DNA of 58,319 bases from Bacteroidales bacterium. GTDB lineage: Bacteria; Bacteroidota; Bacteroidia; Bacteroidales; Paludibacteraceae. Location of the stretch: assembly GCA_900767595.1 (NCBI GenBank), contig CAAFZS010000052.1:1-58319 (forward strand), written 5' to 3'. Made by a program: the position numbers and the translations under genes. The notes under the pieces were generated by a model, which saw nothing but the letters and a program-made list of their open reading frames with translations, was not told the origin of the DNA and did no database searches. Shown here in pieces: positions 2,460-51,386 of the stretch; the first letter of the stretch is position 1; each line of letters opens with the position of its first letter.

Positions 2460-3961
2460 ATAAAATAAATGATTATATGAGACAACTCCTATTCTTGCTT
2501 ATCGGGCTGACACTTTTGTCTTGTAAGCCCAAACCGGTGGAACCCTCTGTTGTAGAGGATGTTAAAGTGACTGCTTCTTCTTTCCAAGAGGGTGATACCC
2601 TTATGGCAAGTGAAGTGAGCGGTTTGGTACTTACCTATTCCGCCAATGTTCAAGTAGTGGCCGGCAAGTCCGTTACTCTTAATGGACAGCCTATCGTGCC
2701 TACCCGTGGAAATACGATGCGTGAGCTCGTCTTTCCTCTTGAATTGCAAGATAGCGTAGCTTATACGTTATCTATTGAAAAAGGCGCTATTGCCAATTCG
2801 AAAGATGCCAATCATATAGCTCCCGCTTATACGTTGCATTTTTATACGTATGGGACGTGGAAACCTACGCCTCCTGTTGCCTCGTTCTTGCGCCAATTGG
2901 GTTGGGGTTGGAACTTAGGCAATCACTTTGACACTTCTTCCGGTAAGGATGGTAAAAAATCCAATTTCTGGGATAATGCCAAACCGACCGAACAACTCTA
3001 TAAGAACCTTAAAGCTATGGGTGCTTCGACCGTTCGTATGCCCGTGACGTGGGGTAACTACCAAGACGTAGAGAAAAACTACGCTATCGATGCCGACTAT
3101 ATGGCACTCGTTAAACAAAACGTGGATTGGGCACTCAATGCCGGTTTATACGTTATCCTCAATACCCACCACGATGAGTATTGGATTGATATTGTGAATG
3201 CAGCTGTCAACTCATCGCTCAAGGACTCTATCTCACAGCGTATCACCATCACGTGGACACAGATTGCGGAAGCCTTCAACTATGCAGGCGACCATCTGAT
3301 TATGGAGACTTTCAATGAGCTGCATAATGAAGCTTGGGGGTGGGGTGGAAATAATGCTCGTTACTATGCCCTTCAGAACGAATGGAACCAAATAGCAGTC
3401 GATGCTATCCGCGCTACCGGTGGTAATAACGCCACCCGTTGGATTGGCGTTCCGGGGTTCTGCGCAAGTCCGAAATTTACAATGGAAGGACTTGTTCTGC
3501 CCAACGACCCTGCCGGTAAGATTATGGTAGGTGTACATAATTACGACCCATACGAGTTTGCTCAAAAAGCAACCAAAAATGAGTGGGGACATACCAGTAG
3601 TAATAAAGATTGTGACGAGGCCTATTTTAAAGACCTCTTCCAACAACTCTACGACAAGTATATCGCCAATAACATCCCTTGCTACTTGGGCGAATACGGG
3701 TGCGTGGTTCAACCTACGGAGCGCGGTGAGCAATTCCGTAATTATTACCTCGAATACTTCTGCCGCTGTGCGTATATGTATAACCTTCCCGTTATGTTAT
3801 GGGACAACAACAATAACGGTAGCGGAGAACGCTTCTACTTTATCAACCATAACAATGGAAAACTCTATAACGAATCCCTCGTTAAACTGATGATTAAAGC
3901 AGCGACCTCGACCGACCCAACTTACACCCTCGAATCCATTTATAAGAATGCACCGAAATGA
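2456..3961 (+). CDS. GH5 endo-beta-1,4-glycanase (mannanase/cellulase type) lipoprotein with an N-terminal Ig-like module
   Basis: Lipobox LLSC. Motifs [15 protein letters not shown] (acid/base) and GEYG (nucleophile). ATGA overlap with the upstream stop; ATG 2477 is an alternative start. Confidence 0.75.
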
Positions 3962-6465
3962 CCTACGGATATTTTGATGATAAGAACAGGGAGTACGTGA
4001 TTGAAAATCCCGCTACCCCTTTCCCTTGGATTAACTACCTTGGTAACGAAGATTTCTTCGGACTGATATCCAATACAGCCGGTGGTTACACCTTCTGTAA
4101 GGATGCCAAGTTCCGCCGTATCACCCGCTATCGCTATAACGGCGTGCCTATGGATGCCGGCGGCCGGTACTTCTATATCAAAGACGGTGACATCGTTTGG
4201 AACCCGGGATGGAAACCATGTAAGACCCCCCTCGATAAGTATGAGTGCCGTCACGGTATGAACTATACCCGCATCACGGGAACGAAGAATGGGGTAGAGG
4301 CCTCTCTGCTCACTTTTGTACCCCTGCATACTTGGGCAGAAGTGCACAAATTACAAATCACAAATCATACATCACAAATCAAACATCTAAAGCTTTTCAG
4401 CTTTGCTGAATGGTGCCTCTGGAATGCCTCTACGGATATGGAGAACTTCCAACGGAACTGGAGTACGGGGGAGATAGAAGTGGAAAGTGAAAGTGAAAGT
4501 GGAGAGTTTACAAGTATTTACCATAAGACGGAGTATAAGGAAAGACGGGATCACTACGCTTTCTATGCCTTGGCGAATCGCAAAGCCGATGGTTGGGATA
4601 CGGACCGCGAGTCGTTTATCGGTTTATATAACGACTTCTCCAATCCGCAATGCGTGATGAAGGGTAAGCCCGCTATGTCCGTTGCCCACGGCTGGAGCCC
4701 GATTGCTTCGCACTACGTGGAACTGACCCTCCAACCCGGCGAGAGCCAAGACCTTATCTTCCTGCTCGGTTATGTAGAGAACGAACAGGACAACAAGTTC
4801 TCAGCTGCCGATATCGAGCGCAAACGCAAAGGCGAACTTATCAGTTCCCAAGATAGTGACGTGACCTTAGTTAATAAAGCGCGCGCGCACGAACTTATCG
4901 AGCGTTTCGCCACCGTCGAAGCGGTGGATAAGGCTTTTGCTGAACTCCGCACGCTTTGGGACGGATTGCTCAGTACGTTTGCGGTCGAGAGCAAGGATGA
5001 ACGCCTCAACCGTATGGTGAACATCTGGAACCAATACCAATGTATGATCACCTTCTGCTTCAGCCGTTCTGCCTCGTTCTTTGAGTCGGGCATAGGTCGT
5101 GGCATGGGCTTCCGCGATAGTAATCAGGACCTCGTCGGATTTGTGCACCAGATTCCAGAACGTGCTCGCGAACGAATCATCGATATAGCCTCTACGCAGT
5201 TCCCTGACGGAGGCTGCTATCACCAATACCAACCGCTCTCCAAACGCGGGAACAACGATATCGGTGGCGGATTCAATGATGACCCGATGTGGCTAATCTT
5301 TGGTACAGTCGCTTATATCAAAGAGACGGGCGATTACTCGATCTTGGACGAGATGGTGCCTTTCGACAACCAACCCGGTACGGAAGTCACTCTACTCGAA
5401 CACCTGTGTATCAGTTTTGACCACGTAGTCAATAACCTCGGCCCACAACACTTACCCTTGATTGGTCGCGCCGACTGGAACGACTGTCTGAACCTCAACT
5501 GCTTCAGTTGGGACCCGAACGAGAGCTTCCAAACAACCGAGAATAAAACCGAAGGCAGTAAGGCCCAATCGCTGATGATTGCCGGTCTGTTCGTGTTCTG
5601 CGGACGAGACTATGTCTCGTTAGTGGAGAGTTTAGAGTGTAGAGTGGAGAGTAGTGTAGAGTTGAATAAGTTGAGAGTGGAAGCAGAAAGGGCGCAAGCG
5701 GAGATAGATAAGATGATTGAAGCCGTTAAGCAGTACGGCTGGGACGGCGAATGGTACTTGCGTGCATACGATTATTTCGGCAATAAGATTGGTTCCAACG
5801 AGAACGAAGAAGGAAAGATCTTCATCGAATCCCAAGGCTTCTGCACTATGGCGGAGATAGGCAAAGAGGATGGACTGGTAGATAAAGCCCTCGACAGCTG
5901 TAAGAAATACTTAGATACCCCTCACGGAATGGTACTCAACCATCCGGCTTTCACCACCTACCACGTGGAGATGGGCGAGATATCTTCCTATCCGGCAGGC
6001 TACAAGGAGAATGCCGGTATCTTCTGCCATAACAACCCGTGGGTGATCATCGGCGAGGCGAAGGCTGGTCGCGGTAACGATGCGTGGGAACACTATACGA
6101 AGATTGCTCCCGCTTGGATAAAGGACCAAGATCTGCACAAGATTGAACCCTACGTTTATTGTCAGATGGTAGCCGGTAAGGATGCGGCTAAACCCGGCGA
6201 AGGAAAGAACTCTTGGCTCACGGGTACCGCTGCTTGGAACTGGCTCACTGTATCGCAGTATATCCTCGGTATCCAACCCGGATTCAATGAACTCATCATC
6301 GATCCCTGTATCCCTGCCAATATGGATGGTTTTACCGTACATCGTCGCTGGCGCGAGGCGGAATATGAGATTATCGTTCGCAACCCGAACCATAAACAGA
6401 AAGCGGACCAACCGACGGTAGTAGCTTATCACCCCGGCAAACAAACCATTGAAATAATATTATGA
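3958..6465 (+). CDS. GH94 cellobiose/cellodextrin-type phosphorylase
   Basis: 835 aa. The N-terminus [46 protein letters not shown] is typical of GH94. Hosts repeats at 4345, 4477 and 5621. Confidence 0.85.
4345..4387 (+). repeat. mini-repeat family D (CACAAAT heptamer variants), in frame in GH94
   Basis: cacaaattacaaatcacaaatcatacatcacaaatcaaacatc encodes [14 protein letters not shown]. Confidence 0.75.
4477..4506 (+). repeat. mini-repeat family H (AGTGAA hexamer), in frame in GH94
   Basis: gaagtggaaagtgaaagtgaaagtggagag encodes [10 protein letters not shown]. Confidence 0.75.
5621..5680 (-). repeat. mini-repeat family B (CTCTAAA/CTCTACA heptamers, G-poor strand is minus), in frame in GH94
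   Basis: tagtggagagtttagagtgtagagtggagagtagtgtagagttgaataagttgagagtgg encodes [20 protein letters not shown]. Confidence 0.9.
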
Positions 6466-7515: not shown

Positions 7516-8859
7516 ATGGCTTCAATTAAAGAAAAACTCGCTTATGCACTTGGTGATGCTGCTGCCGGTGGTATCACGTGGAAAATTATGTCTATTGCCT
7601 TTCCGCTATTCTTTACCAATGTCTTTGGCTTAAGTTTCGCGGATGCAGCAATATTAATGCTCGTGGCTCGTCTGTTTGATGTAGTGACCGATCCTATCCT
7701 CGGTTCACTGGCAGACCGCACGCAGTCCAAATGGGGAACCTATCGTCCGTGGCTCATCTTCGGTGCTATTCCTTACGGACTGATCTTCGCCCTCTTGCTC
7801 TTTACCCCTGACCTCGGTCCTGTTGGTAAACGGGTATATGCCTATACGCTTTATCTGATGATGATGGCTATCTACACGGCAGTGAATGTGCCCTATGGCT
7901 CTTTGCTGGGTGTAATGACCGAAGATGATAATGAGAAAAACGAGTTCTCCTCCTATCGAATGGTAGGTGCTTATCTGATGGGATTCATTACCTTGGCTAT
8001 CTTCCCCTATGTGCAGCGTTGGATTGGCGGAACAGAGGCGCACCAATATGCCGTTATCGGTGTGATTTTTGGTGTTTTGGCTGCGGTGATGACCCTCATC
8101 TGCGGACTATGCACGAAGGAGCGTATCAAACCCAAACGCGCAGAGCATTATACGGCTAAACAGTTTGTGGATTTAGTCAAAAATAAACCTTGGCTCTACC
8201 TCACCGGTATGGGTATATTGACCAATTTCTTCAATGGTTTCCGCTATGCTGCGGCAGGGTATATGTTCACTTACTGTTTAGGAGGTGATGTGACGTGGGG
8301 TAAGGTGATTATTAACTTCACCGTCTTTATGGCGATAGGTGAGGTAACGTGTATGATCTTTGGTGGTATCTCGCCCGCCTTCACTAAATGGGTGGGCAGC
8401 AAACGTAAAGCTTTCCTGCTCGCAGGACTCATCTGCGCCATCACTTCGGTATTATTCTTCTTTATCCCGATGGATGCCAATTATATGTGGCTGATGATCG
8501 CTGTGGTGATCCTTACCTCTATGGGTATCGGTATCTATTCACCCCTATTGTGGTCAATGTATGCTGACGTAGCTGATTATGCTACCGATACGTTTGGAAC
8601 ATCCTCTACAGGACTGATTTTCTCCTCGGGTACGATGGCTCAAAAACTCGGCGGAGCGATCTCGGGTTCCCTTATCGCTGCTTTGTTAGGCGCTGCGGGA
8701 CTTGTCTCCTCCCAGGATATGTTGACGGGCGAAACGATAGTAACCATTACCAACGAACAATCCGTTCAGTCTATGATCTGGTTACTTTTCTCCCTTATCC
8801 CGGCAGGTATCGCCTTAGTGATGATGCTGCTAACCTATAAATATCCGATTAAAAAGTAG
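7516..8859 (+). CDS. GPH-family (MFS) glycoside:cation symporter
   Basis: 447 aa and polytopic. The N-terminus KEKLAYALGDAAAGGITW is typical of glycoside-pentoside-hexuronide symporters. Its position next to the epimerase matches the known mannobiose pathway gene order. Confidence 0.8.
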   Translation: MASIKEKLAYALGDAAAGGITWKIMSIAFPLFFTNVFGLSFADAAILMLVARLFDVVTDPILGSLADRTQSKWGTYRPWLIFGAIPYGLIFALLLFTPDLGPVGKRVYAYTLYLMMMAIYTAVNVPYGSLLGVMTEDDNEKNEFSSYRMVGAYLMGFITLAIFPYVQRWIGGTEAHQYAVIGVIFGVLAAVMTLICGLCTKERIKPKRAEHYTAKQFVDLVKNKPWLYLTGMGILTNFFNGFRYAAAGYMFTYCLGGDVTWGKVIINFTVFMAIGEVTCMIFGGISPAFTKWVGSKRKAFLLAGLICAITSVLFFFIPMDANYMWLMIAVVILTSMGIGIYSPLLWSMYADVADYATDTFGTSSTGLIFSSGTMAQKLGGAISGSLIAALLGAAGLVSSQDMLTGETIVTITNEQSVQSMIWLLFSLIPAGIALVMMLLTYKYPIKK

Positions 8860-8888
8860 TGTAGAGTGGAGAGTTTAGAGTTTAGAGA
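8857..8888 (-). repeat. mini-repeat family B spanning the symporter stop and the epimerase start
   Basis: tagtgtagagtggagagtttagagtttagaga contains the TAG stop (8857-8859) and the GTG start (8866). Confidence 0.9.
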
Positions 8889-10044
8889 TATATTGACGAC
8901 GAATATCCTGCCTTACTGGTTGCGGTTGCAGGATAAGGAACAGGGTGGGTTCTACGGGCAGGTGCTCGCAGACGAGACGGTAGTACAGCATGCGAATAGA
9001 GGAGCTATCCTTTATGGTCGTATCCTCTGGACCTTCTCCGCCGCCTATCGCGCGCTGGGAAAGAAGGAGTATCTGGCAGCAGCCAATCAAGCGAAAAACT
9101 ATATCCTCAACCATTTTATCGATAAACAACAGGGTGGGGTATATTGGGAATTGGATTACTTAGGCAACCCTGTCAACGACCGCAAACAGTTCTATGCGTT
9201 GGGTTTTGTCCTCTATGGCTTAACGGAGTATATCCTCGCTACGGGCGATACATCCGTGTTGCCGTACGCTATCGACCTCTACCATTGTATAGAAGACCAT
9301 GCTTGGGACCTGCAATCGGGTGGTTATATCGAGGCTACAGAGCGCGATTGGAGTGCTATCTCCGATTACCGATTGAGTGAGAAAGATGTCAATGCACCTA
9401 AATCGCAAAACACCCACCTGCATATTTTAGAACCCTATACGAATCTCTATCGCGTATGGCCACAAGAGGAAGTGAAACGATCTATCTTGCGTCTGATTGA
9501 CGTCTTCAAAAACCATATCATTCAACCTTCCGGTCACCTTGGCCTGTTTTTCGATTACGACTGGAATGTCTTACAGCGAAGCGGTCTTTCAGCCGAAGGC
9601 GGTCTGTCAGCGCAGCGGTCTGCCAGCGTAGCGGTCCCTTTCAGTTGCGGTCACGATATCGAATTCTCGTGGTTGCTTGATGAAGCCTGTGAGGTCATCG
9701 GTGTGAACGAAGACGAAACGGTACAACGGGTAGCCACGGCAGCCAAAGAGGGACTCTTGTCTGACGGGCGAATGGAAGGAACATGGTGGGAACAATGCGA
9801 GACAATCATCGGTTATGAAAATATCTACCGCCGCTTTGGAGACGAAGAAAGCAAACGCATTGCCGAGCGTTGTTGGCAGGCAACCCAACAACACTTCATC
9901 GACTACGAGCATGGCGAGTGGTGGGAGTATCCCAATCTTCAATCTTCAATCTTCATTCGTCATTCCGACAAGGCCGGCTTCTGGAAATGTCCATACCATA
10001 ATTCACGTTTATGTTTACAAATAATGCTTTATGAAACACACTAA
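8866..10044 (+). CDS. cellobiose 2-epimerase (N-acylglucosamine 2-epimerase superfamily)
   Basis: 392 aa with ILPYWL...GGFYG and an AGE-fold pattern. Only a GTG start is available and it lies inside repeat 8857-8888. Also hosts repeats at 9574 and 9933. Confidence 0.75.
   Translation: MESLEFRDILTTNILPYWLRLQDKEQGGFYGQVLADETVVQHANRGAILYGRILWTFSAAYRALGKKEYLAAANQAKNYILNHFIDKQQGGVYWELDYLGNPVNDRKQFYALGFVLYGLTEYILATGDTSVLPYAIDLYHCIEDHAWDLQSGGYIEATERDWSAISDYRLSEKDVNAPKSQNTHLHILEPYTNLYRVWPQEEVKRSILRLIDVFKNHIIQPSGHLGLFFDYDWNVLQRSGLSAEGGLSAQRSASVAVPFSCGHDIEFSWLLDEACEVIGVNEDETVQRVATAAKEGLLSDGRMEGTWWEQCETIIGYENIYRRFGDEESKRIAERCWQATQQHFIDYEHGEWWEYPNLQSSIFIRHSDKAGFWKCPYHNSRLCLQIMLYETH
9574..9652 (+). repeat. 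mini-repeat family C (16/17-nt unit CAGCGGTCTTTCAGCG), in frame in the epimerase
   Basis: About 5 degenerate units encoding QRSGLSAEGGLSAQRSASVAVPFSCG. Confidence 0.9.
9933..9958 (+). repeat. mini-repeat family A (TCTTCAA heptamer), in frame in the epimerase
   Basis: caatcttcaatcttcaatcttcattc encodes NLQSSIFI. Confidence 0.9.
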
Positions 10045-11497
10045 ATTTTTAGCAGTATTGCTACTATCCACAATCCACTATCCACTATCCACAATGATGG
10101 CTATTCAATTGCCATCACTGATAGGGGACAATATGTTGTTACAACAACAAACGAATGTTAACCTTTGGGGAACTGCTACGCCTGGTAACACCGTATCGGT
10201 TTATGCCACTTGGGGTGAACAAGCCGAAACCAAGGCCGGCAAAGATGGACGTTGGTCCGTGACATTGGCTACGCCTACTGCCTCTTATACGGAGCATACC
10301 CTCACGTTCGTGGAGACTCCTACCAAACGGGCTTATTATAACCCCGATCCGGTGCAAGTGAACCATGTGCTCATCGGTGAGGTGTGGTTCGGTAGTGGAC
10401 AAAGTAACATGGAGATGCCCCTTATGGGTTTCTGGCAATGTCCTACCGAAGGTGCGAATAAAGAGATTGCTACCGCAGGGAATTATGCCGGTAAGATTCG
10501 TTACGCTATCATTGATCATGTACAAGCGACTACTCCTCAAGAGAATGTGTCGGGTGGCTGGTACGAATGCAATGCCTTCAATGCTCCCCGTTTTGGGGCA
10601 GCAGCCTATTTCTTTGCAAAGATGCTGCAACAAGCATTGGATATTCCCGTGGGTATCATCAACTGTTCTTGGGGCGGCAGCCGCGTAGAAGGTTGGCTCC
10701 CTCGTGAGATTCTCAATACCTACAAAGATGTAGACCTCTCCGACAAAGCTATGAAAGAGATTGCAGATAAACAACTCTATCTCAGTCCGCTCATTATGCA
10801 CGACGGTATGCTTTGGCCTTGCCATTATTATACAGTCAAAGGTTGGCTTTGGTACCAGGGTTGCTCTAATGTAGGTCACGCAGACACCTATACCGATCGT
10901 ATGGAGACCCTCGTTAAGTATGTCCGCGGATTATGGAAGAATGATAAGATGCCGTTCTATTTTGTGGAGATAGCCCCCTTCCGCCATGGCGATGCCGATG
11001 CCGCTTGGGCTGCCGAACTGCGCGAATCGCAATGGGCATTAGAGGATCGTGTACCTTACTGCAAAGGAATCTCTACCAACGACCTCGTTTATGACTATGA
11101 GATAGATAATGTACATCCCGCACAGAAACAAATGGTAGGCGAACGCCTTGCGTATTTGGCTCTTAACCATGACTATGGTTTTAAGACCGTCTATGCCGAT
11201 GCTCCGCGTTATGAACATCACGAAATCAGTGGCAACCATATCGATGTCTATTTCACCAACTGCGCTGACGGCTTCTCTCGTTGGCACGACTACAAAGGCT
11301 TTGAAGTCATTGACGAAAAAGGAAACGTACACCCGGCTATCATCGAGGGCGTACAAGACGTGCCTCACGCACTGCGCTTCTCTGCCGAAGGCGTAGAACA
11401 TCCGACGGCGGTTCGCTACTGCTTCCGCAATTTCCAAATAGGTAATCTTGCTAATATGCGCTATTTACCTATCGTTCCCTTCCGTACGGACAAATAA
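10031..11497 (+). CDS. SASA-family (sialate O-acetylesterase-like) carbohydrate esterase, probable acetyl-mannan esterase
   Basis: Contains the SGNH-like block GEVWFGSGQSNMEMPL. The signal peptide contains repeat 10064-10095. Confidence 0.7.
   Translation: MKHTKFLAVLLLSTIHYPLSTMMAIQLPSLIGDNMLLQQQTNVNLWGTATPGNTVSVYATWGEQAETKAGKDGRWSVTLATPTASYTEHTLTFVETPTKRAYYNPDPVQVNHVLIGEVWFGSGQSNMEMPLMGFWQCPTEGANKEIATAGNYAGKIRYAIIDHVQATTPQENVSGGWYECNAFNAPRFGAAAYFFAKMLQQALDIPVGIINCSWGGSRVEGWLPREILNTYKDVDLSDKAMKEIADKQLYLSPLIMHDGMLWPCHYYTVKGWLWYQGCSNVGHADTYTDRMETLVKYVRGLWKNDKMPFYFVEIAPFRHGDADAAWAAELRESQWALEDRVPYCKGISTNDLVYDYEIDNVHPAQKQMVGERLAYLALNHDYGFKTVYADAPRYEHHEISGNHIDVYFTNCADGFSRWHDYKGFEVIDEKGNVHPAIIEGVQDVPHALRFSAEGVEHPTAVRYCFRNFQIGNLANMRYLPIVPFRTDK
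10064..10095 (+). repeat. mini-repeat family D (CCACAAT/CCACTAT), in the esterase signal peptide
   Basis: ctatccacaatccactatccactatccacaat encodes STIHYPLSTM. Confidence 0.9.
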
Positions 11498-11520
11498 TTC
11501 TTCAATCTTCAATCTTCAAT
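11497..11520 (+). repeat. mini-repeat family A filling the esterase/GH5-GH27 intergenic gap
   Basis: attcttcaatcttcaatcttcaat runs from the last base of the TAA stop to 1 nt before ATG 11522. Confidence 0.9.
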
Positions 11521-13564: not shown

Positions 13565-15528
13565 CCCTACTCATCGCTCTGACCACATTATTACTCAATG
13601 CCGATTGGCATTTTCACTTGGGTAACGCTGCCGATCCTCAACAGGACTTTGGCTGCGGTACAGAGTATTTCAATTACTTCACCAAAGCGGCGAGTATTCA
13701 CAACGAAGGACCCTACGTCCCTTCCTTCAACGACTCCGCTTGGCAGGTGGTACAGATTCCTCACGATTGGGCAACGACCCTGCCTTATGCACCCGAAGCC
13801 AGCCATAGCCATGGCTACCAAACGATTGGCTATGCCTATCCCGAATATAGTGTAGGGTGGTATCGCAAGATGGTTACGCTTGATACGGTCGATTATACAA
13901 CCCCTCATCACCTTGTCTTTGAGGGTATCTTCCGCGATGCGCGCGTGTGGGTCAACGGGTTTTATGTGGGACATACCGAGAGCGGATACTTGACGCAGAC
14001 CTATACCGTGACCGATTATCTGCACGCAGGCGATAACCTCATCTGTGTGCGCGTAGATGCCTCTCTCCAAGAGGGATGGTTCTACGAGGGTGCCGGCATC
14101 TACCGCAATGTCTATTTGACGATAGGCGACCATAGTCTTACAGCGAGTGAAACGAGCGGTCTTTCAGCAAAGCGGTCTTTCAGCGAAGCGGTCTTTCAGC
14201 CGAAGGCGGTCTTTCCTCCCCTCCATGGAGTGTGCTTACACCAGGACCACGGCGGGGTAGGGATTGCGGTCACGAAAGGACTGATGGAGTATCGTCTTCG
14301 CAAACTCATGGACTTGGGTGTGAACGCTATCCGAACTGCTCACCATCCCGCTGCACCCGACTTATTAGATTTATGCGATAGTCTCGGTCTTTATGTCATC
14401 GAAGAGAACCGGCTGATGGGAGCTTCTGAACAAGACTATCAAGCCCTTCAACAGATGATAGAACGCGATAAACATCACCCCTCTATCCTCCTTTGGAGCA
14501 TAGGCAATGAGGAATGGGCACTCGAATGGAACGAGACGGGCGAACGCATTGCCCGAACGATGACCCGATGGTGCCATGAACTCGACAGCACTCGACCTGT
14601 CACCGTCGCTACTTCCTCCGGACCGAATGTGGTTTGGGGCGTTGATGTGGCTGGCTTCAACTATATGAAACAGAATAACCTCGCCTCTTTCCATGACTCG
14701 TTTCCTGAGCGTCTGGCCGTTATGACCGAAGAGACCACCGGCTGCGGTACGCGAGGCATAGCTATGTATAACGACGCCATCGAACATGGATGGCAAAACG
14801 TACTTGATAACGATTGGATACGGGGAATCTTCTATTGGACGGGTTTTGACTATAAAGGCGAACCTAATCCTGCCCAGTGGCCTTCCGTAAGCAGTTTATT
14901 TGGTGTACTTGACTTATGCGGTTTTCCTAAAGACGAAGCGTATTTCCTGCAATCCGTCTGGACGGATAAACCGGTACTGCATATCCTTCCCCATTGGAAT
15001 CTTGATGGACAGGAAGGAGATAGCGTCGCCGTGTGGGTATATTCGAATATGGATGAGGTCGAACTGCGTGTCAACGGCAAACGCCTCACCCGCCAGACGA
15101 TGCCTAAAGTAGGACACCTTGAGTGGAAAACCATCTATCAACCCGGTTCTGTCGAAGCTATCGGTTATAAGAACGGCAAAGTAACTAAACGCGAGAAAGT
15201 CTATACCGCTGGTCCGGCAACACAAGTAAGTTTTGATACGGTGACCTATAGCGGTACCACCATCATGGATGTCACTTTGCTCGATAAGAAAGGACATTTC
15301 TGTCCCACTGCTTGTGACTCTATTCAAGTGGAGTGGACACAACCCGTCCGCATCTTAGGTTACCATAACGGCAACCCCACTGCCCATCTTCAATCTTCAA
15401 TAGTCAATAGTCAATCTTCAATCATAATCCCTGCCTTCAATGGCCATGCACAAATTATTTATGAAAATCTTCAATCTTCATTCTTCAATCTTCATTCTAA
15501 CAATCTTACTGCTCGTATCGTGCGCTAA
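13561..15528 (+). CDS. GH2 glycosidase (beta-galactosidase/beta-mannosidase type), atypically short
   Basis: Motifs WHFHLG...WQVVQIPHDW, NAIRTAHHP, WSIGNEEW and FYWTGFDYKGEP. Repeat 14141-14216 sits where the Ig-like domain is expected. The C-terminal tail is built from repeats. Confidence 0.7.
   Translation: MTLLIALTTLLLNADWHFHLGNAADPQQDFGCGTEYFNYFTKAASIHNEGPYVPSFNDSAWQVVQIPHDWATTLPYAPEASHSHGYQTIGYAYPEYSVGWYRKMVTLDTVDYTTPHHLVFEGIFRDARVWVNGFYVGHTESGYLTQTYTVTDYLHAGDNLICVRVDASLQEGWFYEGAGIYRNVYLTIGDHSLTASETSGLSAKRSFSEAVFQPKAVFPPLHGVCLHQDHGGVGIAVTKGLMEYRLRKLMDLGVNAIRTAHHPAAPDLLDLCDSLGLYVIEENRLMGASEQDYQALQQMIERDKHHPSILLWSIGNEEWALEWNETGERIARTMTRWCHELDSTRPVTVATSSGPNVVWGVDVAGFNYMKQNNLASFHDSFPERLAVMTEETTGCGTRGIAMYNDAIEHGWQNVLDNDWIRGIFYWTGFDYKGEPNPAQWPSVSSLFGVLDLCGFPKDEAYFLQSVWTDKPVLHILPHWNLDGQEGDSVAVWVYSNMDEVELRVNGKRLTRQTMPKVGHLEWKTIYQPGSVEAIGYKNGKVTKREKVYTAGPATQVSFDTVTYSGTTIMDVTLLDKKGHFCPTACDSIQVEWTQPVRILGYHNGNPTAHLQSSIVNSQSSIIIPAFNGHAQIIYENLQSSFFNLHSNNLTARIVR
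14141..14216 (+). repeat. mini-repeat family C, in frame in GH2
   Basis: Units agcggtctttcagc(a/g/c) x4 encoding SGLSAKRSFSEAVFQPKAVF. Confidence 0.9.
15385..15429 (+). repeat. mini-repeat family A (with AGTCAAT variant units), in frame in the GH2 C-terminal region
   Basis: catcttcaatcttcaatagtcaatagtcaatcttcaatcataatc encodes HLQSSIVNSQSSIII. Confidence 0.9.
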
Positions 15529-17938
15529 GAACGAAGTCACTATTCGCGTCACTAACCCTACGGAGAATGGTCCTAAGATTGTTCGCCTACAAGCCGTGAA
15601 TGATAACACGATTCGTGTTACTTCTACCGCGGAAAATAAACTCCGCGACCGCAAGAGTCTCGTAACTGTAAACACAAAAACTACTCTACACTCTAAACTC
15701 TCCACTCTAAACTATTGTGGTGACACTGTTGCCTTATCCACTTCCTATATGACGGCTTATGTGCTTCGCACTACCGGTCAAGTGTGGGTCAATCGTTATG
15801 ATGGCAAACCGCTTCTACAAGAGGCTGCCAATAGCCCCCGTTTTACACCGTACGAATGTACTCAACCTCTACCTCTCAACTCTACACTCTCAACTACTCT
15901 AAACTCTACACTCTCAACTCTAAACTATACAGGATGGACGTATGCCGTCACGTTTGATAACCTATATAACGAAGAAGGTCTTTTCGGCCTGGGTCAACAT
16001 CAATCGGACGAATGGAACTGGAAAGGTCGCGATGAGGAACTCTATCAGTACAATACGAAGGTCAGTCTGCCCATCATCTTCTCTACCGAAGGCTATGGAC
16101 TGATGTTCGATACCTACAGCCTTTGCCGTTGGGGCAACCCCGAACCCTATCAGCCGTTAGAAGAACTCTTCGATGTAGATACCGTCGCTTTACCCTACTC
16201 CTCTACTCCTCTACTCCCCTCCTCCCCGAAGACTATCGTCTACGAAGGCACCCTCACCCCTCGTGCAACCGGCGAATATCGGTTCCTCCATTACTACTCC
16301 GGTTATCAACAACTCTTTATTGATGGGCAACCGTTGAGTCCTACTATTTGGCGAACGGCTTGGAATCCGAACGAGCGTAAGTATCGTTATTATATGGAAA
16401 AGGGACGCACTTATCGCATCCGTCTCACGTGGCAACCCGATGGCGATGTGGCTTATTGTTCCCTTACAGCTCATGCTCCGGAGACAACTGAACAGCATCA
16501 GCAGCTGCGTTTCTGGTCAGAGATGAACCCGAATCTCGATTACTATGTCTTTGCGGGAGAGAATATGGACTCTCTTATCCACTCTTATCGTACACTCACC
16601 GGTAAAGCCACCCTAATGCCCGATTGGGTGCTTGGTTATTGGCAGTCGAGGGAACGCTATAAGACCCAAGAGGAAATCATCGATGCTCTACGAGGTTTCC
16701 GCTCCCGTAACTTACCCATCGATAATATCGTGATGGACTGGAACTATTGGGAACCCTCCCAATGGGGTGCTTTCACGTTCGAAGAGTCTCGTTTTCCTGA
16801 CCCGCAAGCAATGATTGATACCATTCATGCTTTGGGTGCTCATATCATGATCTCTTGCTGGCCTAAGTATTATCCTTTCACGGACCATTATCAAGAGATG
16901 TTAGCCAAAGGTTGGCTCTATCCGCAATCGATTCGTGACTCGCTTATCGATTGGCTTGGGTTCCCTTACGCTTTTTACGATGCGTATAACCCTAAAGCCG
17001 GCAGACTGTTCTTTGAACAACTGTGGGAGCACCTCGGCACGATGGGTATTGATGCCTGGTGGATGGACGCTTCCGAACCGAACATCAAAGACTGTACCCC
17101 CATCGATTACCGTAAGGCTTTGTGCGGTCCTACTTACCTTGGCTCCTCGGACGAGTATTTCAATGCCTATGCTCTTGTCAATGCGCAGTCTATCTATGAG
17201 GGACTCCAACGTAAGGGTGTTCAGGATATCTTCCAACTCACTCGTAACGGATTTCTTGGACAGCAACGGTATTCGACCGCCACTTGGTCCGGGGATATCG
17301 GTACCCGTTGGGAGGATATGAAAGCGCAGATTACTGCCGGACAGAACTTCTCTGTGTCGGGTCTTCCTTGGTGGAGCCAAGATATCGGCGGGTTCTCAGT
17401 CGAGAATCGTTATGCTGCGGCGCAGTACGCTTTTGAAGCTACCGGTAAGGAGAACGCCGACCTTAAAGAGTGGCGTGAACTCAATGTCCGTTGGCACCAA
17501 TGGGGTGTGTTCACTCCTATCTATCGCAGCCATGGTCAGTTCCCGTATCGTGAACCATGGAACATCGCTCCTGAAGGACATCCGGCATATGAGGCGATAC
17601 GGCAGTGCCTTAATGAACGGTATAAACTTATGCCGTACCTAAAAGAACTCAACCGTCGTGTCAGCGAGGAGGATTATACCATTATGCGTCCCCTCGCTAT
17701 GGACTATCCTTCCGACCCTAAAGCTATTGCTTGCGGTTGGCAGTATATGTTCGGACCCGATATTATGGTCTGCCCGGTCTATACCTACGGTGCTCGTGAG
17801 TGGAGCGTCTATTTCCCTGCCGGCACATGGTACGATTACTATACCGGTGAACTCATTTCCAACGGCAATGAGACTCGTATCGTTCCTGCCCCCTACGACC
17901 ATAGCCCCATCTTCCTGAGAAATAAATCACAACTATAA
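15440..17938 (+). CDS. GH31 alpha-glycosidase (alpha-glucosidase/alpha-xylosidase type) lipoprotein
   Basis: GH31 motifs WWMDASEP and WSGD. Lipobox LLVSC. ATG 15461 is an alternative start. Overlaps the GH2 3' end by 68-89 nt. Hosts repeats at 15466, 15681, 15861 and 16193. Confidence 0.8.
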   Translation: MAMHKLFMKIFNLHSSIFILTILLLVSCAKNEVTIRVTNPTENGPKIVRLQAVNDNTIRVTSTAENKLRDRKSLVTVNTKTTLHSKLSTLNYCGDTVALSTSYMTAYVLRTTGQVWVNRYDGKPLLQEAANSPRFTPYECTQPLPLNSTLSTTLNSTLSTLNYTGWTYAVTFDNLYNEEGLFGLGQHQSDEWNWKGRDEELYQYNTKVSLPIIFSTEGYGLMFDTYSLCRWGNPEPYQPLEELFDVDTVALPYSSTPLLPSSPKTIVYEGTLTPRATGEYRFLHYYSGYQQLFIDGQPLSPTIWRTAWNPNERKYRYYMEKGRTYRIRLTWQPDGDVAYCSLTAHAPETTEQHQQLRFWSEMNPNLDYYVFAGENMDSLIHSYRTLTGKATLMPDWVLGYWQSRERYKTQEEIIDALRGFRSRNLPIDNIVMDWNYWEPSQWGAFTFEESRFPDPQAMIDTIHALGAHIMISCWPKYYPFTDHYQEMLAKGWLYPQSIRDSLIDWLGFPYAFYDAYNPKAGRLFFEQLWEHLGTMGIDAWWMDASEPNIKDCTPIDYRKALCGPTYLGSSDEYFNAYALVNAQSIYEGLQRKGVQDIFQLTRNGFLGQQRYSTATWSGDIGTRWEDMKAQITAGQNFSVSGLPWWSQDIGGFSVENRYAAAQYAFEATGKENADLKEWRELNVRWHQWGVFTPIYRSHGQFPYREPWNIAPEGHPAYEAIRQCLNERYKLMPYLKELNRRVSEEDYTIMRPLAMDYPSDPKAIACGWQYMFGPDIMVCPVYTYGAREWSVYFPAGTWYDYYTGELISNGNETRIVPAPYDHSPIFLRNKSQL
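15466..15497 (+). repeat. mini-repeat family A in the GH2 tail / GH31 signal-peptide overlap
   Basis: aaatcttcaatcttcattcttcaatcttcattc is read in two frames: NLQSSFFNLHS in GH2 and KIFNLHSSIFI in GH31. Confidence 0.9.
15681..15714 (+). repeat. mini-repeat family B, in frame in GH31
   Basis: ctactctacactctaaactctccactctaaacta encodes [10 protein letters not shown]. Confidence 0.9.
15861..15927 (+). repeat. mini-repeat family B, in frame in GH31
   Basis: ctcaacctctacctctcaactctacactctcaactactctaaactctacactctcaactctaaacta encodes PLPLNSTLSTTLNSTLSTLN. Confidence 0.9.
16193..16227 (+). repeat. mini-repeat family F (CTACTCCT octamer), in frame in GH31
   Basis: ccctactcctctactcctctactcccctcctcccc encodes PYSSTPLLPSSP. 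Confidence 0.9.
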
Positions 17939-20282: not shown

Positions 20283-20831
20283 GTCGGCACGGGGATTGAT
20301 GAGCATTACGGGGACCTGGCTGCGCGCAATAGCGTGCCGCTCGGGTGGACCGAAAATCAGGTCATCCAATCCGTATTCCCTGCTCGCCGTTAAGATGAGC
20401 AGGTCGTTTTTCCACTCGGCTTGCCGTTCGACCGCCTCTTTGGATAAGTTAAAACTATTTTTCTTAGCCTGCAAGACGCGATAGCGAATGGTTTCGCCCG
20501 TTCGCTGCTTGACTGCCTCTATATGCGTGATGATCTTGTCTAAGTTCTGCTTTGCCTTCGAGCCATAGTCGTTCGCTAAAAGTAGCATTATCTCCGCTCC
20601 CGTCTTACGGGCAAGGTAGGTGCAGATCTCGGATTTATAGACCTCCTCTTCGAGGAACGTGATGGGGACGAGGATATGGGAGTAGAGGGGTAGGGGAGTA
20701 GAGGAGTAGGGTAGATTCATTGTATCCGTGATGAAGACATACGGACGGCGCTCGTCACGACAGTCGTTGAGGTGACGCTGGATAATCGACGCGCGATTCA
20801 GACAGTGAATATATCGTATATCCTCATCCAT
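20262..20831 (-). CDS. universal stress protein (UspA-family)
   Basis: 189 aa with ILVPITF...LLILTASRE...PVMLI in a Usp-like layout. ATG 20720 is an alternative start. Hosts repeat 20678-20714. Confidence 0.55.
   Translation of the reverse strand: MDEDIRYIHCLNRASIIQRHLNDCRDERRPYVFITDTMNLPYSSTPLPLYSHILVPITFLEEEVYKSEICTYLARKTGAEIMLLLANDYGSKAKQNLDKIITHIEAVKQRTGETIRYRVLQAKKNSFNLSKEAVERQAEWKNDLLILTASREYGLDDLIFGPPERHAIARSQVPVMLINPRADLFSLCD
20678..20714 (-). repeat. mini-repeat family F, in frame in the Usp gene
   Basis: The plus strand reads gggagtagaggggtaggggagtagaggagtagggtag. The minus sense strand encodes LPYSSTPLPLYS. Confidence 0.9.
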
Positions 20832-33466: not shown

Positions 33467-33540
33467 TCACTAAAACTAACGACTAATAACTAACGACTAA
33501 CGACTAATAACTAATAACTAACGACTAACAACTAATAAAC
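33464..33540 (+). repeat. mini-repeat family E (TAACGAC/TAATAAC heptamers) filling the PFOR/decarboxylase intergenic gap
   Basis: About 11 units running from the nifJ TAA stop to the base before ATG 33541. Confidence 0.95.
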
Positions 33541-34758: not shown

Positions 34759-36236
34759 TGCACAACATCCAAGCCGAGGCTTTTGACTGCCTCCTTTGTT
34801 TTTCAGCACCGTGCAATAGTGCTTGCCCCAAAGGCCTGCATCCGGCCCGCGGTATTCGTGCCATCCGTTTTGGTAACGAGGACTTAGCCGGACAATGGCT
34901 TACCGATGCTTGTGCCGATTGCGATGCTCCTTGTCAGAAAGCGTGTATCCATCCTGACCACCCAATCCGTATAAAAGAACTGGCAGAACATCTGCACGCT
35001 TCCCCTCTAAACTCTAAACTCTCCACTCTAAACTCAATAGATTTATCCATAGACTTCTGCGGTATTCATTGCGAGAATCCGTTCTTCCTTGCTTCGTCCG
35101 CTATCGCTACGAACTACGAGATGATAGCGCGTGCCTTGGAAATGGGGTGGGGTGGTGTCTATTATAAGACGATTACGGATATGAAGATAGAGGAGGTTAG
35201 CCCGCGCTTTGACGCTATCAAAGACCTCAATCGCAGTTTCACGGGGTTCCGTAATATGGAGCAACTCAGCGAGCAAACGCCCGAGGAGAACTTCGCTATT
35301 ATACGCCGTTTGAAGCAAAACTTCCCAACGAAGATTATTGTGGCCTCCATCATGGGACAGACTGATGACTCTTGGGAGAAATTGGCCAAACAAGCTCAAG
35401 CTGCGGGGGCGGATATGCTGGAATTAAACTTCTCTTGCCCACAGATGAAGACGCGTGGCTTAGGCTCCGATATAGGACAAAATCCTGAATTGGTGGCTTT
35501 CTATACCACGTTTGTTAAACGGGCAGTATCGATTCCTGTCATTGCGAAGATGACCCCGAATATCACCTCAATGGTTCCGGTGGCGATGGCTGCTACCTTT
35601 GCCGGAGCAGATGCTATCTCGGCTATCAATACAATCAAGTCCGTTACGATGTCTCAATCCGGTATGGTAAACGGCAAACGCACCGTTAGCGGCTATTCCG
35701 GCAATGCCGTTAAGCCTATTGCCCTCAAGCATATCCTCGATATGAGCAAAAACCCGATGCTGCAAATCTCAGGAAAACAATTGCAACTCAGTGGTATCGG
35801 TGGCATCGAGACTTGGCGTGATGCACTCGAGTTCATTCAACTCGGCTGCCAAAACGTGCAAATCTGCACGGCTGTTATGCAGTATGGCTATCGTATTATT
35901 GAGGATCTGACGATTGGTCTGCAACATTATATGGCAGAGCATCGCATAGAACATCTGTCCGACTTGGTGGGTTCGGAACTCAAGACCTTTGTGCTTCCCG
36001 ACAAGTTAGACCGTAAGACAATGGTCTATCCTAAGTTCATTCGCGAGAAATGCGTTGGCTGCGGTCGTTGTTATGGGGCTTGCCAAGATGCCGGTCATCA
36101 GGCTATCGAGTTTGATTGGACTACGCGTCAACCCAAACTCAATGGACATAAGTGTGTCGGTTGCCACCTCTGCCGGTTTGTTTGCCAACAAGAGGCCATA
36201 GGCGCTACCAATCGTATTCCCAAACAAGAGAAATAG
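34758..36236 (+). CDS. PreA-like dihydropyrimidine dehydrogenase subunit with an extra N-terminal Cys-rich (PreT/GltD Fer4_20-like) extension
   Basis: From DLSIDFCG onward it is collinear with E. coli PreA as I recall it (NFSCPQM, GYSGNAVKPIAL, C-terminal CVGCGRC...CVGCHLC). About 95 extra N-terminal residues. Repeat 35003-35036 lies at the junction. Confidence 0.75.
   Translation: MHNIQAEAFDCLLCFSAPCNSACPKGLHPARGIRAIRFGNEDLAGQWLTDACADCDAPCQKACIHPDHPIRIKELAEHLHASPLNSKLSTLNSIDLSIDFCGIHCENPFFLASSAIATNYEMIARALEMGWGGVYYKTITDMKIEEVSPRFDAIKDLNRSFTGFRNMEQLSEQTPEENFAIIRRLKQNFPTKIIVASIMGQTDDSWEKLAKQAQAAGADMLELNFSCPQMKTRGLGSDIGQNPELVAFYTTFVKRAVSIPVIAKMTPNITSMVPVAMAATFAGADAISAINTIKSVTMSQSGMVNGKRTVSGYSGNAVKPIALKHILDMSKNPMLQISGKQLQLSGIGGIETWRDALEFIQLGCQNVQICTAVMQYGYRIIEDLTIGLQHYMAEHRIEHLSDLVGSELKTFVLPDKLDRKTMVYPKFIREKCVGCGRCYGACQDAGHQAIEFDWTTRQPKLNGHKCVGCHLCRFVCQQEAIGATNRIPKQEK
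35003..35036 (+). repeat. mini-repeat family B, in frame in the PreA-like gene
   Basis: ccctctaaactctaaactctccactctaaactca encodes PLNSKLSTLNS. Confidence 0.9.
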
Positions 36237-43892: not shown

Positions 43893-43933
43893 CTTCTCTA
43901 AACTCTAAACTCTACACTCTACACTCTAAACTA
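43874..43933 (+). repeat. mini-repeat family B filling the TonB-receptor/PorT-like intergenic gap
   Basis: The core ctctaaactctaaactctacactctacactctaaacta (43896-43933) abuts the receptor TAG stop. A degenerate part overlaps the PorT-like TTG start. Confidence 0.9.
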
Positions 43934-49712: not shown

Positions 49713-50651
49713 ATGCTTGGAATTATCATTAATCCCAAATCCGGGAAAAGGGCGTTTCGCGCTCAACGCTTATACCTTTGGAAACTGCTTAAGGCCCGTC
49801 ATCAGCCCTTCACGTATCGCGTAACTAAATATGCTAATCACGCGCTTGAACTTGCGCGCGAGTTAGTAGAAAAAGGATACGACCAGATTCTCGTCCTCGG
49901 TGGTGATGGCACCCTGAGCGAGGTGATTAACGGAATCATGCGGGCAGATATCTCTGCTGAACAACGATCAAAAATACAATTTGGTCTTATGCCTCGTGGT
50001 ACAGGTAACGATTGGGCCCGGTACTGGAAACTGAACAAAGACTTCAAACGTTCTCTTCATTATTTTTTTGAAGAAGGCAAATGTCAACCGCTGGATGTGG
50101 GTTGTGTTACCTATTGGCGCAATGGTATTGAGCACCACCGCTATTTCATTAACTCCGTCGGCTTTGGTGTGGATGCCGTCACTTGTGTGGAAGCCTTGCC
50201 GCTAAAGTATTATATTGGTTCGCACCACATTAATTACCTCATCGGTTTTTTGATGGCGGTCTTCCGTCATAAACCGATGCCTGTCAACCTCACTGCGGAT
50301 GGGCAAGTGATAACGAAGGATAAGATGTTTACTATGAACATCGGTAATGGTCCTTTCTCCGGTGGGGGAATGAAGCAGAATCCCGATGCCGACCCTCGCG
50401 ATGGAATCTTCCATTCGATGTTTGTGGGCAAACCTACGTTTAAACAAATCTGTCAAGCTATACCCAAACTATTCTCGGGAAAAATAAACGAAGTGGATGT
50501 CATTCACTCCTTCACAGCCAAGGATATTGTGGTTGATACCAAGAAACACCTTGTTATAGAGGCCGATGGTATCTTAATGGACTTTATGGGACCGTGCGAG
50601 ATTCATTGTCTCCACAAAGCGCTCTGCATGACCGTCCCTAATTACTGCTAA
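49713..50651 (+). CDS. YegS/BmrU-family lipid (diacylglycerol-type) kinase
   Basis: Contains the motif GGDGTLSEVINGI. Confidence 0.8.
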   Translation: MLGIIINPKSGKRAFRAQRLYLWKLLKARHQPFTYRVTKYANHALELARELVEKGYDQILVLGGDGTLSEVINGIMRADISAEQRSKIQFGLMPRGTGNDWARYWKLNKDFKRSLHYFFEEGKCQPLDVGCVTYWRNGIEHHRYFINSVGFGVDAVTCVEALPLKYYIGSHHINYLIGFLMAVFRHKPMPVNLTADGQVITKDKMFTMNIGNGPFSGGGMKQNPDADPRDGIFHSMFVGKPTFKQICQAIPKLFSGKINEVDVIHSFTAKDIVVDTKKHLVIEADGILMDFMGPCEIHCLHKALCMTVPNYC

Positions 50652-51386
50652 CTTGCCAATATCTAACATCTGATAATCCTCCGGCTCATAGGCTTGGAGG
50701 ATTTCTTTTTGACATATATCGAGGTAGAAATCAATGAGTGAAAACACATCTTCTTCCTTATCTAATAGACGCGCGCATACGCGAGGACTTAAAATCTGCA
50801 TCCCGCTAAAAGCCAATCTTTCAGCGTCAGCGGTCTTACAGCGCAGCGGTCTTTCAGCGCAGCGGTCTTTCAGCGTTAGCGGTCTTACCTCTCCTGTAGA
50901 GATGTTCTCCCATCCAATCATTCGCCTCTGCTTGTCAAACAGCAGATATCGGCTTGTCTCCCGTTTACTCACCACAAGTCGGCTGATTCCATCTTTCTCG
51001 TATGCCTCTATCAATGCCTTCAAGTCGATATTACTTAATATATCCACATTGAGTGCCAATATACTCTCAACTTTAGAACTACTCTCAACTCTACACTCTA
51101 AACTCTCAACTCTTTTTAGTCCTCCTCCGGTATCAAGCAATTGCTCTCTTTCATCGCTTACCATTAGGTGGCAATCAAAATAATCGTGTTCTTGTAAGTA
51201 GTTGAGAATCAGGTCAGGAAAGTGGTGTGTATTGATGTAGATATCCCGTATTCCGGCATCGCGCACCATCTCTATTTGCCATTGTAGCAACGTCTTGCCT
51301 CCTACTTCCACGAGGGCTTTGGGCTTGTCGTTAGTAATGGGTTGTAGGCGGGTACCGAGTCCCGCGGCAAAAATCATCGCTTTCAT
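50574..51386 (-). CDS. sugar-1-phosphate nucleotidyltransferase (MurU-like)
   Basis: Begins MKAMIFAAGLGTRLQPITNDKPKALV. Hosts repeats 50817 and 51063. The 3' end overlaps the convergent lipid-kinase gene by 78 nt. Confidence 0.75.
   Translation of the reverse strand: MKAMIFAAGLGTRLQPITNDKPKALVEVGGKTLLQWQIEMVRDAGIRDIYINTHHFPDLILNYLQEHDYFDCHLMVSDEREQLLDTGGGLKRVESLECRVESSSKVESILALNVDILSNIDLKALIEAYEKDGISRLVVSKRETSRYLLFDKQRRMIGWENISTGEVRPLTLKDRCAERPLRCKTADAERLAFSGMQILSPRVCARLLDKEEDVFSLIDFYLDICQKEILQAYEPEDYQMLDIGKLAVIRDGHAERFVETMNLARSHKVH
50817..50888 (+). repeat. mini-repeat family C, in frame (antisense orientation) in the nucleotidyltransferase
   Basis: The unit cagcggtctt(t/a)cagcg is spaced exactly 16 nt apart (50828, 50844, 50860). 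The sense strand encodes LTLKDRCAERPLRCKTADAER. Confidence 0.95.
51063..51113 (+). repeat. mini-repeat family B, in frame in the nucleotidyltransferase
   Basis: actctcaactttagaactactctcaactctacactctaaactctcaactct. The sense strand encodes [17 protein letters not shown]. Confidence 0.9.

Follow-up and report, generated by a model that had tools for sequence, protein, structure and literature searches.

The 58,319-nt contig CAAFZS010000052.1 of a Paludibacteraceae metagenome-assembled genome (MAG; GCA_900767595.1), called the window below, carries a heptanucleotide tandem repeat family with the unit GTKKAGA (K = G/T), here termed family B, which forms eight arrays in both orientations relative to the host gene. 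Two of these arrays lie within genes for a GH94 cellobiose-phosphorylase-type protein and a nucleotidyltransferase. Our results make it somewhat probable that the arrays belong to a slippage-prone, dispersed heptanucleotide microsatellite family that is filtered by the reading frame and occupies operon spacers and tolerant surface elements of enzymes. The initial annotation had argued from a 33-nt match between the two genes that the arrays are copies of a common element. This holds at the level of the family, where a 21-nt periodicity of unit order and a recurrent irregular 11-mer were found, and does not hold for the 33-nt pair itself. The loci concerned are as follows.

3958..6465, plus strand: GH94 cellobiose-phosphorylase-type gene (Pfam GH94 domains, E = 9e-156; nearest solved structure 3QDE).
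4345-4387, 4478-4501 and 5621-5680, in the plus-strand GH94 gene: three short-repeat segments.
5621..5680, plus strand: the entire family-B-derived GH94 segment, a net gain of 11 residues (33 nt) when compared with alleles lacking the insert and with 3QDE.
5623..5650, plus strand: four perfect family-B units, GTGGAGA GTTTAGA GTGTAGA GTGGAGA, encoding VESLECRVE.
5651..5655, plus strand: GTAGT, the out-of-register junction that closes the 33-nt match and contributes serines 565-566, where the turn ends and the second helix of the hairpin starts.
50574..51386, minus strand: NTP_transferase-family gene (the nucleotidyltransferase), host to a family-B array and a 16-mer array (50817-50886).
51083..51110, minus strand: four perfect family-B units, GTTGAGA GTTTAGA GTGTAGA GTTGAGA.
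51058..51082, minus strand: irregular 11-mer GTAGTTCTAAA, then GTTGAGA and GTATATT, a composite with the four units that is kept in orthologues.

The match itself was confirmed by direct reading. Positions 5623-5655 of the plus strand read GTGGAGAGTTTAGAGTGTAGAGTGGAGAGTAGT (GTGGAGA GTTTAGA GTGTAGA GTGGAGA GTAGT) and the reverse complement of 51078-51110 reads GTTGAGAGTTTAGAGTGTAGAGTTGAGAGTAGT (GTTGAGA GTTTAGA GTGTAGA GTTGAGA GTAGT), with 31 of the 33 bases equal; units 1 and 4 have one mismatch each, G/T at their third base. The two loci are read in one phase and encode a common 11-residue peptide (GH94 residues 556-566, nucleotidyltransferase residues 93-103), the two mismatches being synonymous GTG/GTT valine codons, and BLASTP detected no similarity between the two proteins outside the array peptide. 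Beyond the 33 nt and past an indel, the pair additionally has AAGTTGAGAGT in common. The permuted copy that had been proposed to supply (M)ESLEF at the epimerase start is also real, and is listed here with the other family-B loci of the window.

8854..8886, plus strand: family-B array filling the MFS/epimerase junction, with the MFS TAG stop at 8857-8859 and a putative GTG start at 8866.
15685..15712, minus strand: four family-B units with GTAGT after them, antisense in the GH31 gene.
15874..15925, minus strand: family-B array antisense within the GH31 gene, with a 24-nt super-unit (GTA plus three heptamers).
35006..35033, minus strand: four family-B units antisense to a DHOD-like gene, whose frame reads LNSKLSTLNS.
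43897..43931, minus strand: five family-B units between two outer-membrane-protein genes, with TAG in every unit.

Arrays of this kind lie far beyond what random sequence yields, as (GTNNAGA)x3 matched 16 times in the window and never in 100 shuffles. The closeness of the GH94/nucleotidyltransferase pair is nevertheless ordinary once the family is given. Under a null model built from the unit frequencies of the window, two four-unit arrays differ by at most 2 nt with P = 0.21, and demanding an open reading frame (ORF), with stops excluded, gives P = 0.44 for at most two mismatches in four units. Among the observed inter-array comparisons of four units in the window, 9 of 27 show at most two mismatches, three of these having just one, and a GTAGT tail follows 4 of the 8 family-B arrays. 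Through the three codon phases the GTKKAGA unit encodes V-[E/stop]-S-[G/V/L/stop]-E-[W/C/L/F]-R, in which GTxTAGA is forbidden at phase 0 by a TAG stop and GTTGAGA at phase 1 by a TGA stop. These exclusions favour an A-B-C-A order of units, and the identical peptide in two unrelated proteins thus follows from reading-frame constraints. Correspondingly, TAG-free units, with G as the fourth base, make up 83% of units in coding-like arrays vs 59% elsewhere. Taken together, the frame filter, the four-letter unit alphabet and the common layout of four units plus GTAGT account for both the 31/33 identity and the identical peptide, and the match is no closer than the small unit set and stop avoidance predict. 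As evidence by itself it therefore fails, since mixing the 7-mers of the family yields equal closeness. A role of the GTAGT junction as a frame-correcting device was also considered and rejected, because as a 3-nt GTA between units it leaves the later codon phase unchanged.

The two arrays also differ in age. At the site past DTGGGLKR, nucleotidyltransferase orthologues down to ~65% identity carry a family-B array with a constant layout of four units, G[TA]AGTTCTRAA and further units (L124, L126, L127, L128, L130). The 16-residue array peptide is identical in several assemblies within a cluster that is ~85% identical overall, orthologous arrays change by unit-level steps, and a few relatives carry other families at this site (e.g. 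AITDRF, ALADPNIPTP). The nucleotidyltransferase protein is also present on contig CABTUN010000082 of GCA_902488075.1, and the proteins closest to those of the window are annotated as Paludibacteraceae. The nucleotidyltransferase array is old and vertically inherited. By contrast, the GH94 array is a recent gain. When aligned with 3QDE, its site falls in an inter-helix turn at which the window protein has 11 additional residues, and comparison of the window protein (W) with alleles inside one 90% cluster revealed the following states.

GH94 site 5622, no insert: P0246, P0249 = L129.
GH94 site 5622, family B: W, P0247, P0248, P0244.
GH94 site 5622, family B with a nested hairpin: L131.
GH94 site 5622, AAGGACA heptamers: L120, P0245.
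GH94 site 4478-4501: no insert; AAGTGA hexamers (W); GGAGTAGR 8-mers (L120); AACAAGG heptamers (L122); GC hairpin (L121); family-B composite encoding VESGEFRVESSSKVNSLEF (L131).

The insert-free P0249 and the AAGGACA-bearing P0001 are each 94% identical to the window GH94 protein, and the insert-free alleles retain the ancestral ELC...EAERAQ seen in distant homologues. L120 keeps right-hand bases derived from family B, which indicates that AAGGACA replaced family-B units there. Every length difference among the GH94 alleles is a multiple of 3, with inserts ranging from +9 to +54 nt. With one array old and the other recently gained, neither of the two is a recent copy of the other, and the strongest form of the earlier claim falls away. 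That the two arrays in this genome are linked by recent direct copying or gene conversion is accordingly improbable to a high degree, even though the 31/33 identity, the additional AAGTTGAGAGT past the indel and an array length sufficient for pairing in short-patch conversion would speak for it. The pair is no closer than the family background, the nucleotidyltransferase peptide is kept within the ~85% cluster and its layout down to ~65% identity, and the mismatches are concerted (G,G vs T,T), a pattern that local duplication of a 21-nt super-unit would give. Moreover, GCA_024400135 and GCA_045598805 have family B in the nucleotidyltransferase gene and AAGGACA in GH94. Insertion of a precise 33-nt cassette into GH94, suggested by the net gain of exactly 11 residues, cannot be upheld either, because ~27 nt of the ancestral sequence have given way to ~60 nt that are family-B-like.

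Compared with insert-free alleles and solved structures, the arrays are insertions; they turn over fast at a few hot spots with nesting, and different repeat families or mini-hairpins hold one position in close relatives. The arrays also evolve in concert: in the CACAAAT array at 4345-4387, in the GH94 N-terminal domain, the length is equal in all orthologues and all six units end in T in the window vs C in L131, a concerted change without any indel. Near-identical strains share identical arrays (P0242/P0247; P0121/P0250-P0254). In the insert-free alleles of L129, an 8-mer, CTCCATCA, is common to both GH94 hot spots (window 4478 and 5622); the chance of this is roughly estimated at ~2%, and the 8-mer could be a target motif or a coincidence.

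Relatedness at the DNA level is visible in the order of units. The comparison took in 85 heterogeneous arrays, drawn from the window, from 118 genome loci and from 51 viral loci. Unit i equalled unit i+3 in 60 of 97 cases vs 43.1 expected from within-array shuffles, a value reached by 1 of 2000 shuffles, and lags of 1, 2 and 4 showed no excess of equal units. The lag-3 excess was found both in arrays deep inside long ORFs (16/23 vs 9.4 expected) and in the remaining arrays (44/74 vs 33.9 expected). Unit order is therefore non-random with a 21-nt periodicity. In addition, the irregular 11-mer GTAGTTCTAAA (G[TA]AGTTCTRAA) trails runs of units in at least 8 unrelated contexts with its serine codons unchanged. 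AGAGTAGTTCTAAA or near variants follow units in the nucleotidyltransferase group, at GH94 site 4478 in L131, at GH94 site 5622 in L123 (GAAGTCCTGAA) and in the further contexts L042, L058, L251, L264 and L278. The codons AGT AGT TCT are constant while the peptides vary (SSSK, SSFK, SSLK, RSPE, RSSE), and this conservation of DNA under a varying peptide argues for relatedness of the DNA rather than convergence of the peptide. The view that the arrays descend from, or were repeatedly copied from, a common family with a super-unit is thus partly supported.

These data bear directly on fully independent local slippage from native proto-units, in which mutational bias and selection for stop-free, harmless peptides would bring about convergence. 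The insert-free site 4478 reads GAAGTTGAAAAC and contains GTTGAAA, the frame filter is strong, and heptamers are given as the commonest long simple repeats in bacteria, possibly because of the polymerase footprint, in Mrazek 2007 as cited in PMC4679880 and PMC4692102. On the other side stand the same irregular 11-mer with AGT AGT TCT codons and varying peptides, which points to homology of the DNA, the presence of the families in intergenic arrays beyond the reach of any peptide filter, and the alternation of several unrelated families at a single site. We therefore regard this explanation as very unlikely. The earlier position that independent slippage of unrelated local sequence is insufficient stands, and the arrays form one dispersed DNA family with higher-order structure.

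Beyond the window, GTDB representative genomes contain (GTKKAGA)x3 in more than 118 stretches, the source genome not being among these loci and the carriers among the matches listed being mostly rumen, hindgut and termite-gut Bacteroidales, together with Planctomycetota, Verrucomicrobiota, Acidobacteriota and others. Of 153 arrays, 28 lie deep within long ORFs, mostly in antisense orientation encoding QLSTLNSQLST, and the apparent hosts, read off the translations only, are a P-type ATPase, cysteine desulfurase, Mfd, UvrA, MiaA, LigA and the ATP synthase gamma subunit. At least four units were found in 51 IMG/VR stretches (L132-L182). The viral contigs, several of them multi-copy, carry family-B arrays that are mostly exactly (GTTGAGA)4. 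Inverted pairs of homogeneous (GTGGAGA)4 or mixed arrays with a 25-100 nt spacer were observed in an Acidobacteria MAG (SZAS-13) and a Planctomycetota MAG (L027 2290-2375, L053 5085-5310, L076 180-265, L044 1965-2050), and would form long stem-loops in intergenic DNA. A metagenome scan with the 17-mer AGAGTAGTTCWAAAGTT placed 4 of 120 rows (3 distinct contexts) in arrays, most of the others being chance matches. A search of a 49-residue concatenate of array peptides against 5.8 billion proteins gave no match at E <= 10 from 1531 word candidates and was uninformative. Nearly all genomes involved are metagenome-assembled, which might suggest that faulty assembly or binning of low-complexity sequence produced the arrays. 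Independent NCBI, ENA and Logan assemblies contain the same arrays, in frame with the two flanks of one and the same conserved gene, and orthologous arrays diverge in step with their host genes, which leaves this explanation practically negligible.

Perfect runs comprised 3, 4, 5 and 6 units in 69, 80, 15 and 5 arrays, respectively, and the four-unit mode was present in viral contigs too. Nesting was seen in L130 (~2155-2190), where a 36-nt insert with a GCCCCGAAGGGC hairpin splits a unit cleanly into GTT / insert / GAGA, and in L131, where CGCCCGTTGGGCTA lies within a unit. Two chimeric junctions between families overlap by 4-6 nt, one in L124 from GTTGAAA into GACCGCTGCG (GACCGC) and the other in L120 from CAATCTT into TCAGCGCAGCGG (TCAGCG). 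In-frame insertions into coding sequence also include mini GC-rich hairpins (GCCCCGAAGGGC, GCCCGTTGGGC, CCTCCCCTTCGGGGGGAGG, GCCCTTTGGGC), located at L130 ~2155-2190, at GH94 site 5622 in L131 and at 10524-10562 and 15762-15809 in L121, some of them nested in heptamer units. Within a >90% identity cluster, certain members have these hairpins and others lack them.

Under the microsatellite reading, arrays would lengthen, shorten and homogenise through replication slippage by 7 or 21 nt at a time, arrays that are new or replace others may be templated by existing ones through microhomology-driven template switching or ectopic conversion, and selection would retain only arrays that span a multiple of 3 nt and order their units so that neither TAG nor TGA comes into frame as the 7-nt unit passes through the three codon phases. 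Several points weigh against this account. Slippage alone leaves unexplained the same units and 11-mer at unrelated sites, in different genomes and phyla and in phage contigs. Perfect runs peak sharply at four units, which is quantum-like rather than the geometric distribution of slippage. Only two sites of the 817-residue GH94 protein are hit repeatedly, hinting at targeting at the DNA level, and the template-switching step is one that we infer, with only two microhomology junctions seen.

A rival reading is a very small non-autonomous mobile cassette of ~33-39 nt, consisting of four heptamers plus GTAGTTCTAAA and in frame at 39 nt, with analogous cassettes of other families, preferred targets, and a trans-acting enzyme or templated synthesis encoded elsewhere. 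The composite recurs in at least 8 unrelated contexts, alternative cassettes share one site in a shallow clade, the nested insertion in L130 splits a unit cleanly (GTT, 36 nt, GAGA), the four-unit peak extends to viral contigs and the family is found across phyla. Such a cassette is nonetheless unlikely: no terminal inverted repeats or hairpin were found in the arrays and no consistent target-site duplication was seen, insert lengths vary from +9 to +54 nt, unit content is freely variable, and orthologous arrays drift unit by unit as microsatellites do. Nor does the window contain a candidate enzyme gene. The initial annotation had pointed to an associated gene; Pfam searches of 38 window ORFs found no reverse transcriptase, primase-polymerase, HUH or transposase gene, and no gene for a REP-associated tyrosine transposase (RAYT; REP, repetitive extragenic palindromic sequence) was present within the 58 kb. 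We consider it quite unlikely that a dedicated templated-insertion activity of the reverse-transcriptase, primase or break-repair type, uses a short template to write family-specific cassettes, each some four units (~30-39 nt) long. If this were true, it would act at preferred sites in chromosomes and resident phages of several phyla, and the in-frame arrays would be the survivors.

Returning to the microsatellite reading, its second part concerns where arrays are tolerated. The nucleotidyltransferase model has a mean predicted local distance difference test (pLDDT) score of 80 and falls below 50 solely at residues 11-15, 96-104 and 173-183, the latter two lying in the two array-encoded stretches. 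The GH94 model is poor overall (mean pLDDT 61), and within it helix 539-562, turn 563-565 and helix 566-593 reach pLDDT 80-92, so that in this model the GH94 array extends an existing helical hairpin. The arrays thus sit at tolerant surface elements, namely the GH94 hairpin tip and low-confidence nucleotidyltransferase loops. Alternatively, the arrays might be selected functional modules, serving as coiled-coil or linker peptides in proteins and, in spacers, as regulatory RNA/DNA sites that set stops and starts or are bound by a heptamer-reading protein. VESLExR is a heptad with hydrophobic residues at a and d that extends the helical hairpin in the model. The ORF from GTG 8866 reads (M)ESLEF, and the junction array at 8854-8886, which provides one stop codon and one start codon, is kept in four genomes (the window, L120, L122 and L129); TAACTGA repeats have moreover been proposed as translational regulators (PMC4679880). 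Against this, close relatives have unrelated families or nothing at the same positions without other change, with AATCTAG heptamers in L123 and 16-mers in L121 at the MFS/epimerase junction, coding regions use both orientations and the nucleotidyltransferase segments are modelled as disordered. Rfam gave no family match for the arrays, and RNA folding of four arrays gave z-scores of -0.03, -0.31, +0.84 and -1.82, none significant. A functional role of this kind is highly improbable.

Family B is one of several repeat families in the window. Tandem Repeats Finder (TRF) reported 49 non-redundant short tandem arrays in the 58 kb of this Paludibacteraceae MAG, 2.9% of its bases, with period 7 as the dominant class (22/49), likewise in four related loci. 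Arrays lie inside ORFs in 34 cases, 13 of them heptamer arrays, and are open in frame. Another 10 lie at gene junctions, some making up the whole spacer, and about half of the 39 window genes carry at least one array, hosts including LigA, DHDPS, RibF, GH31, GH2 and Rho. Arrays at 8854-8886, 11499-11520, 33469-33535 and 37594-37627 abut or overlap start codons. The families are as follows.

Family A: unit TCTTCAA.
Family B: unit GTKKAGA.
Further heptamer families: units CACAAAT, ATCCACA and ACTAACA.
8-mer family: unit GGAGTAGR.
16-mer family: unit GTCTTTCAGCGCAGCG.

Arrays of the 16-nt family (GTCTTTCAGCGCAGCG and variants) comprise about four copies, are in frame and lie at 9574-9636, 14155-14215, 17979-18039, 50817-50886 and 51784-51869, in the epimerase, GH2, GH5, nucleotidyltransferase and APH/PapZ genes, with KDRCAERP-like peptides; the family occurs at other sites in the relatives L120, L121, L124 and L128. 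The 8-nt family (GGAGTAGR / CTACTCCY) is present in four genes (16193-16227, 20678-20711, 37192-37223, 41915-41949), and at L120 10536 GGAGTAGR holds the GH94 site where the window has AAGTGA hexamers. Some operon spacers consist entirely of ACTAACA, ACTAATC and TCTTCAA arrays (33469-33535, 37594-37627, 11499-11520, 46956-47007), which begin no more than a few bases past a stop codon or stop no more than a few bases before the next start. The GH2 and GH31 ORFs overlap by 89 nt (15440-15528) across two TCTTCAA-family arrays (15386-15423 and 15466-15507); their true stop and start positions are uncertain, as stop-free repeats may lengthen ORFs. A 9-nt / 27-nt in-frame repeat (TCCGGTGTT) at 48150-48208 falls in the N-terminal part of Rho, upstream of its RNA-binding domain; the unit is divisible by 3, and the repeat forms a class apart from the heptamers.

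Bacterial heptamer repeats are known, poorly explained and described mainly as intergenic, and here they reach the genes, arrays being present in frame in about half of those in the 58 kb. Alternative families swap at one codon position between ~94% identical alleles, and matched empty, occupied and replaced alleles thus make the origin of the repeats directly testable. For annotation and protein engineering, the arrays flag naturally tolerated insertion points in enzymes. For scanning pipelines they call for caution, since a 7-nt unit read in three phases under stop avoidance produces identical peptides in unrelated proteins.

Searched for in the literature as literal strings, the heptamers turned up solely in plant primer sequences and in no bacterial context. 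Like long simple sequence repeats (LSSR), the arrays of the window are head-to-tail copies of a 5-11 nt unit beyond chance with a dominant period of 7. The heptamers GGGAATC of Xanthomonas and GGGGAYT of Nostoc show a four-unit bias and inverted pairs and occur less often than expected in coding sequence (Rehm et al. 2015, PMC4692102). Family B resembles them in its dispersed tandem 7-nt units, its bias to about four units, its placement between co-oriented ORFs, the tandemly inverted pairs of the Acidobacteria and Planctomycetota loci, and the variation in length and sequence among close relatives. In contrast to them, 34 of the 49 arrays here lie in ORFs and in frame, and several families coexist and replace each other at one site. 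Moreover, the GTKKAGA unit does not form G-quadruplexes, so the four-unit bias formerly ascribed to G-quadruplex formation is also seen in a heptamer in which it cannot be explained in this way. TAACTGA direct repeats occur in Beggiatoaceae, cyanobacteria and a few Bacteroidetes (MacGregor 2015, PMC4679880). As with these repeats and the cyanobacterial short tandemly repeated repetitive (STRR) sequences, a heptamer family is common to distant phyla with no evident mechanism of transfer, and some arrays abut start codons; no tandem copies of TAACTGA or of STRR1-3 (CCCCAGT, TTGGTCA, CAACAGT) were found in the window. TAACTGA repeats are mostly intergenic and carry stops in the forward orientation, whereas family B is widely translated with a unit order adjusted against stops.

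Borg tandem repeats are pervasive, fast-evolving and recently formed in intergenic and coding DNA, where the segments that they add to proteins are of low complexity or disordered (Schoelmerich et al. 2023, PMC9879509). The repeats described here are likewise pervasive and fast-evolving in both settings. As to disorder, the array segments of the nucleotidyltransferase have pLDDT <50, and the model of the GH94 array is an ordered helical hairpin. Genic Borg repeats reportedly have units divisible by 3. By that criterion the present units of 7, 8 and 16 nt differ, the 7-nt unit being read in three phases and the in-frame status of heptamer arrays being achieved solely through total length. Borg repeats also arise per locus, whereas the same unit families recur here at many loci and genomes. 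Small dispersed repeats of Nostoc are said to have been described by Elhai and colleagues in 2008. Similar to these and to REP sequences and the REPIN elements that they form (PMC3116915), very small repeated elements nest here into other repeats, as mini-hairpins such as GCCCCGAAGGGC are inserted into arrays. Unlike REP/REPIN, family-B arrays have no palindrome, significant fold or fixed length. Phase-variable contingency repeats also differ, in that near-identical strains here have the same arrays, all alleles are in frame and the hosts are housekeeping genes. So do diversity-generating retroelements, as the variation here is G/T at unit positions 3-4 rather than adenine-specific and the window contains no reverse transcriptase. 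Family B is a variant of the known bacterial heptamer repeats, set apart by its unit sequence, its large-scale in-frame occupancy of coding sequence, its coexistence with families that replace one another, and a four-unit bias without G-quadruplex potential.

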